Shown: positions 1 through 31,917 of the stretch, piece after piece | Layout of the letters: the number at the start of each line of letters is the position of its first letter | Numbering within the stretch: position 1 is the first letter of the stretch | Origin: Candidatus Zixiibacteriota bacterium | GTDB lineage: Bacteria; Zixibacteria; MSB-5A5; GN15; FEB-12 | DNA length: 47,419 nucleotides | Direction of reading: 5' to 3' | Assembly: GCA_020344395.1 (NCBI GenBank) | Contig: CP070824.1 | Coordinates: forward strand, 2,823,609-2,871,027 | Translations under genes and position numbers: made by a program | Notes under the pieces: model-generated | Databases searched by the model: none | The model's input: only the letters and a program-made list of their open reading frames with translations | Told to the model about the DNA's origin: nothing

Positions 1-1992
1 GGTCAGATAGAAATCAATGGAATCCAGTGGCACCTCGGACGGGTCGCTGTAAGGCGGCTCCGTGGCCTCAGGGTAAGACTTGACAATAGGTGTCTCCCAC
101 CCGAAAAGCGCCGCGTTGCAACCAATCGGCTCGAAATAGAAAACTGAGTCGTCAAAATACGGCATGCGGTATGGGTCCTCACGATAATATGCTTCCGGGA
201 TAAACGATGAGTCCCCGCATCCTGCGGCCGCATACTTGCACCTCAGTTCCTCAACGGTGAACCGTCGTCTGACAAGATCCCACTGAACGCTGGTTGGATT
301 CCAGACATACTTGTAATAGTCCTGAACATCGCAGGAAGCCACAAGCGTTGACGGACCTGTGCCTGGCTCCGGAGAGTAATAGATGTTGTAGCCTTCGAAA
401 TTTATCTCACGTGAGATAATATCCCGCGATGTCTCAGACAGGTGGCCGTTCCACCTCAATCGGAGCGCTGATGGGAGCGGTTCAACCCAAAGATGGGGAG
501 CCGGTGGTGCGACCACCGCACGATAATCGGGTACGCCGTCTCCCTCGGTCCAGACCGTATCCCCATTGCATACAACGTATTGACCGGCGTAGCCGTCGGA
601 ATCCGTATCCACACCCGGATTGTCGTAAACATATCCGGCCCACATGGCGTTGTACGTCAGATCACTGAAATCTAGAAACATGTAATAGACTTCGGGCTCT
701 TCCGGCAGGAAATCGGTCACACCCAGATTCTTGTGCAGGAACTTGCCGGCTACGTAGGCGAGGGCCAGAGGAACACTTTCACCCGGGCCGAGATCGAAGG
801 GACCAAACGAGAGCAGATATTTCGTATCCCATCCATCAGTTATGTCAGCCGCAATGGTCGGAGGCGGAGAGTACCATACGGAATCATCACTGAACACGGA
901 TCCGGTGTATATCTGATCGAAATCAATCTCGCCGTTGCTGAGCATATAGTACTTGTTACGATCTCCCTCGGGAGTGCCCATGCCGCCGGTTCCAAAATCC
1001 CTGTAGTTGTCGCGCCGCATCGGCCCCCAGTCAAGCGACGGGTTGCCGTTGGAAACCCACCAGTTAAATGAGACTACCGGGCTGTCAACAGGAGACTGCA
1101 GCACTCTCGTTCCCGTAACGTGCGGGCTCCATTGCGAAAAGGGATAATAGAGATCGCCGTCATTATCAGCAATCCACGCAAGATTCATCGGATATGCAAC
1201 GCCGCAGGTAACCGGCAGATACGGATCCCTTGCGGTCGGAATGAAGCCGGCCACATCGTCGAAAAATCCCGTGGGTATTACTTCTGAATGAACATCCCCG
1301 TCGACATATACGCCAAGATAGCCATCGGAAATAGCTGATGTACCGATGTTCTTGATCTGATAGCTGAAAATAACGAAATCATCAGTGTGCGGATAACTCC
1401 AGGCATACGTTTCCTGAGTGATCTCGATGTTCAGAGGCAGGTGCGGCCGACCATCAAGAAAATCCAGGGTCAATCCCGTGACGCCGGATGTAAAGGTATC
1501 GGTATAGACGGCAACGTAGTCCTGCTCGGATACCGCGCCCACTGCCTCCAGCCTTGTCGGGTCAACGGTCGAGCGAGAAATCATGTCACCGGCAGGCGAC
1601 TCATGCGGGTGCAGCTCGGCCCCGCCGCTCCAGCCGTCCCGGCCGGACGACACCAGCGTATCGGTTTCGATAATGCCGCCGATCCAGAAAGCAGCCCCGA
1701 ACAAGTATCGGCTGTTGCTGCCCGCAGGGTACTCCATGGTCGGTACCCGTTCGCCGGTAAAACAATCAAGGTCGCCGGAAGATGAGAATGGTGTCCCAAA
1801 ACTACCGTTATTGCTGACACCAAAGATGAGGTTGCCGACATCATGCTTGCCGATACAGTAAGCGGGGACAGCGGTGGCGATGGAATTCCCGGTGCTCCGT
1901 GGATATTCCGCCGACGTCCTGGCATGTACCGAAGGCGCGATAATCAGAACGGCCATGACAATCAGAAACAGAGTCAGTCCCGAGCGCACCAT
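1..1992 (-). CDS. Secreted hypothetical protein, 3'-truncated by the window edge (at least 664 codons); signal peptide, large unassigned domain, FN3-like segment near the edge
   Basis: Absent from the ORF track, presumably because it has no stop inside the window. I read plus-strand triplets 1-3, 4-6 ... up to 1990-1992 and found no tta/cta/tca, so the minus-strand frame is uninterrupted. The ATG at 1990-1992 lies 1 nt after the TGA of the upstream gene and is preceded by GGGGGAG. The N-terminus MVRSGLTLFLIVMAVLIIAPSVHA|R looks like a Sec signal peptide. Confidence 0.7.
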   Translation of the reverse strand, partial: MVRSGLTLFLIVMAVLIIAPSVHARTSAEYPRSTGNSIATAVPAYCIGKHDVGNLIFGVSNNGSFGTPFSSSGDLDCFTGERVPTMEYPAGSNSRYLFGAAFWIGGIIETDTLVSSGRDGWSGGAELHPHESPAGDMISRSTVDPTRLEAVGAVSEQDYVAVYTDTFTSGVTGLTLDFLDGRPHLPLNIEITQETYAWSYPHTDDFVIFSYQIKNIGTSAISDGYLGVYVDGDVHSEVIPTGFFDDVAGFIPTARDPYLPVTCGVAYPMNLAWIADNDGDLYYPFSQWSPHVTGTRVLQSPVDSPVVSFNWWVSNGNPSLDWGPMRRDNYRDFGTGGMGTPEGDRNKYYMLSNGEIDFDQIYTGSVFSDDSVWYSPPPTIAADITDGWDTKYLLSFGPFDLGPGESVPLALAYVAGKFLHKNLGVTDFLPEEPEVYYMFLDFSDLTYNAMWAGYVYDNPGVDTDSDGYAGQYVVCNGDTVWTEGDGVPDYRAVVAPPAPHLWVEPLPSALRLRWNGHLSETSRDIISREINFEGYNIYYSPEPGTGPSTLVASCDVQDYYKYVWNPTSVQWDLVRRRFTVEELRCKYAAAGCGDSSFIPEAYYREDPYRMPYFDDSVFYFEPIGCNAALFGWETPIVKSYPEATEPPYSDPSEVPLDSIDFYLT

Positions 1993-1993
1993 C

Positions 1994-31400: not shown

Positions 31401-31917
31401 TAACAATCGGGACACCCTCACGCACTGATTCAGCTGCAGTAGCCACAAAATATGGTCGGCTGCCGGGAATGCTGATATAGCCGTTGACCAGCCCGGAACC
31501 CGAAAGGGCCAAAAACACTTGAGATTCCGGTTCGCTCGCAACCTTCCCCCGGTACACGGCAACATCAAGGTTCGGCCGATCCACCCGGTTGCCGTCGATG
31601 TAGAACCGCGCCGACGGCGACAGCACATCAAACCGCTCCAGTTGCAGGCTCATGGTTTCGGATACCGATACCGGAAGCTCAATCTCCTGGGCGGCCTGTT
31701 CCTCAAGCAATCTGGAAACCGCCTGAGAATTCTGGCTGAGTGTAATGCCAGTTCCCTCCTCGAGCGGTTCGATCTGTTCAAACAAGAGCACGGCATCTGA
31801 ACCTGACGCCACCGGCACCAGAAAAAGGAATACAATGAATATTCTGAGGGACAGGTCAAAGGCGACGCATCCCCTGCGCCGTGGCTGCGGGTCATTTGGT
31901 TGTGGGTGCAAAAACAT
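28189..31917 (-). CDS. Metzincin (reprolysin/M12B-like) zinc metallopeptidase, paralog 2, with the same architecture as 24316..28062
   Basis: Track ORF is 28189..31965. I prefer the ATG at 31915-31917 (MFLHPQ...) because AAGGAGG sits 6 nt upstream. Motifs: [15 protein letters not shown] and STLMGYC. It is collinear with the neighbouring paralog over its full length. Confidence 0.9.
   Translation of the reverse strand: [1242 protein letters not shown]
28903..29280 (-). repeat. TSP3-like Asp/Cys repeat array, coding, inside metallopeptidase paralog 2
   Basis: [37 protein letters not shown]...[14 protein letters not shown]...[14 protein letters not shown]...[14 protein letters not shown]. Confidence 0.8.

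Follow-up and report, generated by a model that had tools for sequence, protein, structure and literature searches.

The closest described relative of the system treated here comes from the candidate phylum Cloacimonadota. In 'Ca. Stygibacter', S8 and C25 peptidases and glycoside hydrolases were proposed to be held on a cohesin scaffoldin with a type IX secretion system (T9SS) C-terminal domain, in a complex that would break down both polypeptides and polysaccharides; the proposal was made from genomes only (Williams et al. 2021, PMC8542988). Cohesins and dockerins outside cellulosomes are also widespread in bacteria and archaea, in hosts that are not cellulolytic, as the finding of Peer et al. 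(2009) is related in PMC9012536. In anaerobic methanotrophic archaea (ANME), scaffoldin-like proteins carry one dockerin and up to five cohesins, and the presumed function of such archaeal proteins, those of Archaeoglobus fulgidus included, is the organisation of the cell surface (PMC9012536). Here we analyse a stretch of 47,419 nucleotides (the window) of a Candidatus Zixiibacteriota bacterium (GCA_020344395.1, contig CP070824.1, positions 2,823,609 to 2,871,027), whose left part, positions 1-31965, is an island of 11 minus-strand genes for large secreted proteins. Nine of them share a module of ~78 amino acids (the module) and three contain a second domain of ~157 amino acids (X). Judging mainly from predicted structures, it is reasonably likely that the island is part of a diverged cohesin-dockerin system, a cell-bound and peptidase-rich multi-enzyme assembly. 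The initial annotation of this DNA had put forward a cellulosome-like protease assembly as an uncharacterised idea; the Cloacimonadota complex, with its S8 and C25 peptidases and its cohesin scaffoldin, is a precedent (PMC8542988). It is the closest known system, and the present case is not a new kind of system.

A six-frame motif search found exactly nine modules in the window, each with two copies of the motif D[IVM][GS]D[LV]TxLI. Eight of the nine end at most two residues from the C-terminus of their protein, and one is N-terminal (gene 1994-4036). The copies score 110-142 bits against their own hidden Markov model (HMM), far above chance, and are 53-69% identical to the first copy; the two halves of a module are identical at 9-15 of 16 positions, an internal duplication that is visible in alignments. 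The same duplicated design of a calcium loop plus a helix is found in the clostridial type I cohesin-dockerin system (C. thermocellum CipA; PDB 1ohz, 2ccl, 4fl4). Five of the nine copies matched nearly the full length of Pfam Dockerin_1 (PF00404), at 13.8-19.1 bits (E 0.0015-0.07), all copies in the window lying below its gathering threshold of 22.9 bits. When a profile of the nine copies was searched against the PDB, the best match was a C. thermocellum dockerin (4fl4_A, E=0.046, with a two-residue gap in the first calcium loop). A broader profile, with more divergent modules from proteins that carry X and module together, matched 23 solved dockerins (best 4fl4_A, E=1.3e-5; CelS dockerin 1daq, 4e-4). 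Some members of the family do exceed the Pfam threshold (P and L numbers are our handles for proteins and loci): P0173 reaches 56 bits and P0124, with eight repeats, 221 bits. Among 74 module proteins from GTDB, Dockerin_1 was found in two, with a best E of 1.3e-10.

The AlphaFold2 model of the module, built on an alignment of 49 sequences, has a pLDDT of 90.4 and shows helices at residues 24-36 and 57-69, a loop before each of them and a short linker helix. In a Foldseek search of the PDB the model retrieved dockerins at all of ranks 1-29, with a probability up to 1.0 and a best E of 9e-3, E-values being modest for so short a module; the query-normalised TM-score for these 29 was 0.37-0.73, and at least 0.50 for the first 26. 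A canonical dockerin loop has 12 residues, with Asp or Asn at positions 1, 3, 5, 9 and 12. In the module, acidic or amide residues are conserved at N13, D15, D17, D23 and D26 and again at N48, D50, D56 and D59. Loop 1 exceeds the canonical length by two residues, as its HMM alignment with 4fl4 shows; loop 2 has 12 residues in seven of the window copies and 14 in the other two and in the family consensus. A CC pair before the first repeat is invariant, another cysteine follows the second repeat, and a further one stands in the linker in eight of the nine copies. The sub-threshold Pfam matches, the profile matches to solved dockerins and the predicted fold all bear out the dockerin-like character that the module had been given, and its homology to type I dockerins is very probable. 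With its four conserved cysteines, which presumably form two disulfides, and its lengthened calcium loops, it is a distinct dockerin subfamily.

The module is not a recognised sorting domain, a finding that would have spoken against the reading of the initial annotation. At E≤10, the nine isolated modules matched no sorting-domain model in Pfam or NCBIfam, those of the T9SS (PF18962, TIGR04183) included, and this candidate was rejected; besides sub-threshold Dockerin_1, they matched only NCBIfam NF045500 (Omp28-related selenoprotein), weakly and over its last 60-70 positions. It appears that the NF045500 family has this dockerin-like module at its end. NF045500 is also matched by the 1304-aa protein of the island (15332-19246), with 93 bits over seven stretches of which the best is aa 481-508. 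The match raised the idea of selenocysteine recoding in the module, which was rejected: the one in-frame stop examined, in L028, a locus of a Zixibacteria metagenome-assembled genome (MAG), falls in a variable loop of X and not at a cysteine position. That gene (L028:1875-3119, plus strand) encodes X and module, with the stop in the X loop (...LTPG*GGC...), and past it the frame stays open for what is left of X, for a whole module and for ~170 more residues. The stop could reflect a pseudogene, a sequencing error or recoding.

The second domain, X, is a segment of ~157 aa that runs from LDHVDGL to WDGPHCF and is present in four copies in three island proteins. The 1304-aa protein has two in its N-terminal part (aa 34-190 and 260-416), each with 185 bits against the X HMM, and one lies directly before the module in each of the two M12B peptidases. 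X has no match in Pfam or NCBIfam, even at E≤10. Its homologues are small proteins without a precomputed Pfam domain, and those with a named organism are from Zixibacteria, apart from one labelled Calditrichaeota. The first copy of the 1304-aa protein was modelled by AlphaFold2 on an alignment of 43 sequences, which gave an all-beta structure of ~10 strands (pLDDT 94.3, pTM 0.89). Cohesins account for 45 of the 50 matches listed by Foldseek against the PDB, with types I, II and III and a cohesin-like module of C. perfringens among them, at E down to 5e-5, probability 1.0 and TM-scores of 0.42-0.62; chains of YcnI, a copper-binding protein, make up the remaining five. It is therefore likely, on the strength of this model, that X has a cohesin-type fold. 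The initial annotation had pointed to a search for a repetitive or anchored cohesin partner: Pfam Cohesin gave no match, but X is present four times in the island and occurs elsewhere in multi-copy and anchored forms.

These forms were examined in ~130 X proteins from protein searches. The most frequent, in 52 proteins, consists of a signal peptide, X and the module in ~260 aa. Another 42 have X alone in ~200 aa, at least 21 of them with a clear lipobox followed by a linker rich in Gly, Asn and Asp, and in ~20 a canonical T9SS C-terminal domain comes after X (precomputed PF18962/PF13860); the module stands N-terminal to X in two. Homologous small X proteins have the module in their C-terminal slot in some cases and a T9SS C-terminal domain in others. 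The distance from the end of X to the CC motif of the module is 0-5 residues in both M12B peptidases and in most of the ~260-aa proteins. Larger architectures include P0167 (C10 peptidase, PKD, module, three tandem X and a second module), P0173 (module-X-module-X-module-X-module, the protein whose dockerins pass the Pfam threshold), L124:8432-12283 (five tandem X and a Por_Secre_tail of 38 bits) and eight proteins of ~1065 aa arranged as module-X-X-module-Por_Secre_tail (the tail with 44 bits in L130). The module and a true Por_Secre_tail stand in one polypeptide in L130 and L124. The protein at L145:1829-4549, with X, module, X, PKD, DUF7619 and module, resembles the 1304-aa protein of the window.

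Genomic linkage of the two domains is also seen. In L083, three giant module-bearing proteins, one of them an S8 peptidase, are encoded directly upstream of two genes for X with a T9SS domain, and in L080 a gene for X alone (~206 aa) lies ~2.6 kb from that for a module-bearing Laminin_G_3 protein. Among 78 metagenomic X loci, 35 have at least one open reading frame (ORF) with only the module within 10 kb. Other Zixibacteria genomes encode X-only proteins of ~205 aa (P0307, P0346), a size class that is often lipobox-anchored, and L124 is a clear case of anchored X in another Zixibacteria genome, by way of its T9SS C-terminal domain. X follows the pattern of cohesins in that it is single on anchoring proteins and in tandem on scaffoldin-like ones, sometimes together with a module. 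By analogy, the layouts in relatives mirror anchoring, adaptor and primary scaffoldins; what Gram-positive scaffoldins achieve with S-layer homology (SLH) or sortase anchors and with adaptor dockerins would be paralleled in X proteins by the lipid, the T9SS domain and the module.

The module itself reaches far beyond the island. An exhaustive profile search of 1.84 billion cluster representatives returned 9011 proteins at E≤1e-3 and 2801 at E≤1e-10, and all organism-named matches in a search of 5.8 billion proteins are from Zixibacteria. A scan of GTDB with one peptide pattern gave 174 confirmed stretches, mostly in Zixibacteria MAGs, single MAGs holding 12-15 or more separate module loci. Contigs with the module were also seen in MAGs labelled Ignavibacteriales, Sedimentisphaerales, Aenigmatarchaeota, Gammaproteobacteria and Acidoferrum (L003, L004, L006, L019, L021, L036 and L070 are among the contigs in MAGs with other labels), with modules that are near-typical for Zixibacteria. 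We suspect that these labels reflect mislabelling or mis-binning, horizontal spread being the alternative. The passengers in 74 complete GTDB proteins include Beta_helix (7), Peptidase_C1 (7), TSP_3 (7), PKD (4), Peptidase_S8 (3) and InhA-like MAM (3), with M14, M64, M4, CotH and Kelch as single cases; a lectin is also among the passengers. The module thus tags secreted proteins of Zixibacteria in general, with peptidases strongly represented, and is not specific to the island. Some proteins consist of four to eight tandem modules and almost nothing else (P0123, P0124, P0160, P0233), and many others, of ~320-620 aa, have a module at both ends; such poly-dockerin and both-ends proteins could act as cross-linkers in an assembly.

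According to these data, we consider it somewhat more probable than the contrary, by structural prediction and domain arrangement, that X binds the module. Docking would be calcium-dependent, as that of dockerins onto cohesins. The window encodes five module-bearing peptidases and one protein with two X, a multi-enzyme set in terms of predicted domains. The 1304-aa protein, a candidate adaptor or scaffoldin, would contribute one plug and two sites for docking; both M12B peptidases, with one X and one module each, would be cargo and docking site at once, and the remaining six or seven module proteins would be cargo, so that the island products could assemble into branched, peptidase-rich complexes. 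Because all three X proteins of the window end in a module and not in an anchor, the primary anchor is probably encoded elsewhere. Attachment to the cell would then depend on proteins encoded outside the window, of the kind represented in relatives by X lipoproteins or by X proteins with a T9SS domain, five-X arrays included. The likely physiological role of such an assembly would be the surface-bound breakdown of extracellular protein. The protease assembly first proposed for this locus therefore gains a predicted cohesin-fold partner within the island itself, but the module has turned out to be neither island- nor protease-specific and the window contains no anchor; docking and localisation are what we infer.

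Several findings speak against this docking scheme and must be taken into account. In sequence, X could not be connected with cohesins: hhalign against three CipA cohesins of C. thermocellum gave a probability of 0.9%, a profile search of the PDB returned no cohesin and Pfam Cohesin (PF00963) was unmatched at E≤10; a sequence-level link was rejected on the hhalign and PDB results. The cohesin assignment comes from one AlphaFold model and from moderate TM-scores for a beta-sandwich, a common fold that brings YcnI in among the matches of X. In addition, the only lipoprotein of the window (4168-4785) is without X, and no other anchor protein is encoded there. Modules outnumber X in the window, with 9-10 against four, and dockerin-like modules for which no cohesin can be detected are widespread, with a role that is not understood, as far as PMC9012536 conveys the work of Peer et al. 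(2009). The lack of sequence similarity between X and cohesins, the commonness of its fold and the excess of modules would suit a module that is a calcium-binding, disulfide-stapled dockerin fold directed to a target other than X (for example a glycan of the envelope, the substrate or an S-layer-like component) or that has a stabilising function, while X would be an independent adhesin or carbohydrate-binding beta-sandwich and the shared architectures would result from domain shuffling. This explanation seems to us improbable, since fusion and interleaving of X and module are far more systematic than random shuffling would produce (P0173, the module-X-X-module-T9SS proteins, the 52 small proteins with both), since X has three alternative anchorings (lipobox, T9SS C-terminal domain, module), as is typical of a docking receptor, and since cohesins dominate the listed structural matches of X.

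The position of the module also tells against docking, because ~90% of modules are at the extreme C-terminus, as a sorting tag would be: an HMM scan of 79 GTDB loci and the window placed 110 of 122 there and seven at the N-terminus, and the same holds for 100 of 138 top representatives. The module could thus be a sorting, secretion or surface-attachment tag for an envelope machinery, comparable to T9SS C-terminal domains or PEP-CTERM, with X as an unrelated passenger. Many copies per genome on very different passengers, and the exchange of module and T9SS C-terminal domain in the same slot of homologous small X proteins, agree with such a tag, and tagged proteins do need some route through the outer membrane; under the docking scheme the passage of Sec-exported, module-tagged proteins across this membrane has no explanation. 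However, the predicted fold is helical and dockerin-like instead of a beta-sandwich, the module is homologous in sequence to real dockerins, and no sorting model in Pfam or NCBIfam matches it. Modules also occur at the N-terminus, internally, at both ends, in tandem (6-8 copies) and in alternation with X, they stand beside a genuine Por_Secre_tail in one polypeptide (L130, L124), and cellulosomal dockerins are likewise mostly C-terminal. A sorting tag is consequently an unlikely explanation. A last difficulty is that X abuts the module with almost no linker, which could indicate an intramolecular unit instead of intermolecular docking. X and the adjoining module might then form an obligate pair that binds a third partner, in the manner of the X-module/dockerin dyad of type II systems; the 0-5 residue spacing in both M12B peptidases and in most of the ~260-aa proteins is what this would predict. 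We hold it to be very improbable, given that X without a module is found on lipoproteins and on T9SS-domain proteins, that the two N-terminal X of the 1304-aa protein lie ~800 aa from its module, that X forms tandem arrays and that most modules have no X in the same protein.

Docking of module to X thus remains the explanation we favour, and it places the island beside the known systems in a definite way. Like the module, the dockerins of clostridial cellulosomes are mostly C-terminal on secreted enzymes, and the predicted folds of module and X match dockerin and cohesin; tandem arrays of X, adaptors with a module and anchored single-copy proteins add to the likeness. The host, in contrast, is a Zixibacteria MAG and not a Firmicute, and Zixibacteria are related to the Fibrobacterota-Chlorobiota-Bacteroidota (FCB) group and presumably diderm. 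Modules of the window differ from clostridial dockerins in being sub-threshold for Dockerin_1, in their four cysteines (CC, C, C) and in loops of 14 residues instead of 12, and the sequence of X does not resemble Pfam Cohesin. In place of SLH or sortase, a lipobox or a T9SS C-terminal domain is the candidate anchor, and the cargo of the island consists of peptidases and adhesin-like proteins. Pfam scans found no glycoside hydrolase or carbohydrate-binding module (CBM) in the island; with its proteolytic and adhesin-like cargo, it does not qualify as a cellulosome in the strict sense.

With 'Ca. Stygibacter' the island shares a host from an FCB candidate phylum, enzymes with signal peptide and C-terminal dockerin, S8 serine and cysteine peptidases among them, and the derivation of the complex from genomes (PMC8542988). 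The domains of 'Ca. Stygibacter' were found with the standard models of InterProScan, whereas neither Pfam nor NCBIfam detects X, and the dockerin, stapled by cysteines, stays below threshold; its scaffoldin has CBM2/CBM3 and its cargo includes glycoside hydrolases, and the island has neither. Lipoproteins with a single X, mini-proteins of X and module, and poly-dockerin proteins belong to the Zixibacteria side and are not described for 'Ca. Stygibacter' (PMC8542988). Archaeal systems have domains in the standard libraries, mainly substrate-binding and S-layer proteins as cargo, and an archaeal envelope, and the island differs in all three. Cohesins and dockerins serve for substrates other than cellulose in the amylosomes of Ruminococcus bromii (PMC4611034) and in the predicted mucinolysomes of Limousia (PMC12997984); as the consulted parts of these reports describe them, both are systems of Firmicutes with canonical modules and glycan-degrading cargo, whereas the catalytic cargo of the island is dominated by peptidases. 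Dockerin-bearing peptidases do exist in ruminococcal and clostridial cellulosomes, according to the parts of the literature consulted. The T9SS C-terminal domain (Por_Secre_tail, PF18962) is comparable in size (~80 aa), in its extreme C-terminal position and in its presence on many secreted, multidomain and often proteolytic proteins of FCB bacteria, but it is a beta-sandwich, whereas the module is helical with calcium loops, gives no HMM match to it and is also found in N-terminal, internal and tandem positions. Our literature search found no paper that mentions both Zixibacteria and dockerins, and the matches listed for 'Zixi' with 'cohesin' were chromatin papers only.

The genes of the island are given in Table 1. 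ORF listing and translation confirmed the 11 minus-strand secreted products of the initial annotation, nine of them with the module, and Pfam agreed with its five peptidases of four families (S8, C1, C10 and two M12B), whose quoted catalytic motifs are all in the translations, and with the FG-GAP, beta-propeller (NHL), PKD and TSP_3 content. A hydrophobic, signal-peptide-like segment could be read by eye at the N-terminus of all 11 products, as claimed, and the lipobox LTGC is present in one. The statement that every large gene is on the minus strand has to be corrected, because the genes for a sigma factor and an anti-sigma-like protein lie on the plus strand inside the range. A GGAGG-like Shine-Dalgarno sequence, attributed to every gene, precedes nearly all 11, the exception being the first ATG of gene 4907-6292. 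Since this ATG is without a Shine-Dalgarno sequence and the 461-aa ORF ends in the complete, unchanged sequence of database protein P0129 (450 aa), the true start probably lies 11 codons downstream. Another database protein, P0131, implies a start at 31917 for the M12B gene 28189-31965.

Table 1. Genes of the island and the tRNA gene at its border; positions refer to the window, and X and module positions are in nucleotides unless aa is given.
Position	Strand	Product	Features
1-1992	-	Partial gene, N-terminal 664 aa	Signal peptide; without family in Pfam or NCBIfam; downstream partner in conserved gene pair
1994-4036	-	680-aa secreted protein	N-terminal module, aa 38-116, 3680-3928; upstream partner of conserved gene pair
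4168-4785	-	205-aa lipoprotein	Lipobox LTGC; neither module nor X
4907-6292	-	FG-GAP beta-propeller protein	Pfam FG-GAP_3, E=8e-32; C-terminal module 4910-5143
6487-10539	-	1350-aa S8 subtilase	Peptidase_S8, E=6e-37; TSP3 and FG-GAP repeats; C-terminal module 6490-6723
10761-12596	-	611-aa C1 papain-family peptidase	Peptidase_C1, E=4e-49; PKD; C-terminal module 10764-10997
12716-15088	-	790-aa C10 (streptopain-family) peptidase	Peptidase_C10, E=1e-51; InhA-like MAM; C-terminal module 12719-12955
15332-19246	-	1304-aa non-catalytic protein	Two X (18677-19147, 17999-18469); TSP3, three PKD, DUF7619; C-terminal module 15335-15583
19588-20991	-	467-aa beta-propeller-like protein	C-terminal module 19591-19824
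21335-21871	+	ECF-type sigma factor	Pfam Sigma70_r2, Sigma70_ECF, Sigma70_r4_2
21844-24177	+	777-aa anti-sigma-like protein	Pfam: weak zf-HC2, weak FlgO-like, many TPR; hydrophobic segment
24316-28062	-	1248-aa M12B reprolysin-like metallopeptidase	E=2e-19; NHL-type propeller, TSP3; X 24553-25032 abutting C-terminal module 24319-24552
28189-31965	-	1258-aa M12B paralogue	E=5e-18; layout as in 24316-28062; X 28423-28899, module 28192-28422
32431-32514	-	tRNA-Leu(GAG)

The lipoprotein 4168-4785 was considered as a partner of the module and rejected, as it has no family match in Pfam or NCBIfam and is unmatched by the X HMM; a weak match to DUF4410 (E=0.045) is all that was seen. Against NCBIfam NF047638, the MYXO-CTERM cell-cell cohesion protein MtsC, the TSP3 region of the 1304-aa protein reaches 148 bits (cut-off 350), and its calcium-binding repeats are of the same type as those of this myxobacterial protein.

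The two genes at the left edge belong to a conserved pair, in which a protein of ~640-680 aa with an N-terminal module is directly followed by one of ~790 aa with a C-terminal module. The ORF 1-1992 is 47% identical over 658 aa to the product of L078:11812-14199 (795 aa, with the module at its end), and the product of 1994-4036 is 37% identical to that of its upstream neighbour, L078:9890-11815. The pair recurs twice in L065 as a tandem duplicate (L065:2077-10822) and once in L078 (L078:9890-14199), and apart from the module its members have no Pfam or NCBIfam family. As the window cuts this pair, a tenth module, at the C-terminus of the gene 1-1992, probably lies just beyond the left edge. 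Otherwise no conserved island was found in GTDB relatives: the best nucleotide match, of ~68% identity, is confined to the C1 peptidase gene, and a 790-aa neighbour protein in L024 has only the module in common with the C10 peptidase of the window.

The genes for the extracytoplasmic function (ECF) sigma factor and the anti-sigma-like protein overlap by 28 nt in the middle of the island. We speculate that the pair may control expression of the island, the anti-sigma-like protein having a large, presumably extracytoplasmic region of tetratricopeptide repeats (TPR); the control of cellulosome genes by sigma-I/RsgI, as outlined in the part of PMC6852018 consulted, is a loose analogue. A comparison of 9-mers in the intergenic regions of the island found no motif common to more than two genes that might be a shared promoter. 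At the right, ~470 bp past the last island gene, a tRNA-Leu(GAG) gene, 89% identical to part of L056, forms the border to housekeeping genes (tpiA, pgk, gap, rodA, PBP2, mreCD, accA and glycosyltransferases). Among these, a 641-aa ORF with Asp_protease_2 overlaps a rodA-like ORF by ~280 nt (36702-38627 and 38348-39565, both on the minus strand), and the downstream gene probably starts later than listed. The G+C content is uniform at 0.51-0.57 throughout the window, and since it shows no step there is no clear sign of a recent horizontal insertion.

What is new in this system is the phylum, a family with a predicted cohesin fold and no sequence model, a cysteine-stapled dockerin subtype with long loops, a candidate lipoprotein anchor, the abundance of mini-proteins of X and module and of poly-dockerin proteins, and the predominance of peptidases in the cargo. 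Standard annotation misses such a system, because no model in Pfam or NCBIfam covers X and most modules score below threshold. Structure-based search can thus reveal cohesin-dockerin systems hidden by sequence divergence, a point also made for human gut ruminococci in the portion consulted of a recent preprint (bioRxiv 10.64898/2026.02.05.704116). The binding of X to the module is directly testable with two small recombinant domains and, if true, would give protein engineering a new pair of interaction modules stapled by disulfides. It would also extend the cellulosome principle to protein degradation and to a presumably diderm FCB bacterium with lipoprotein and T9SS anchors.

A wider and more doubtful proposal, which we put forward tentatively, is that Zixibacteria and some related uncultured bacteria build an outer-membrane-anchored, self-extending 'proteolysome' from X cohesins and cysteine-stapled dockerins. 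X anchored by a lipoprotein or a T9SS domain would seed the network, mini-proteins of X and module together with module-X alternating and poly-dockerin proteins would polymerise or cross-link it, and peptidases and adhesins would plug in. If this were true, it would be the first cohesin-dockerin machine of a diderm that is devoted to breaking down protein, and it would play a major part in organising the secretome of an entire phylum. If only the binding of X to the module is assumed, cohesin-dockerin interactions would organise much of the peptidase-rich secretome of a whole candidate phylum that is common in sediments and aquifers.

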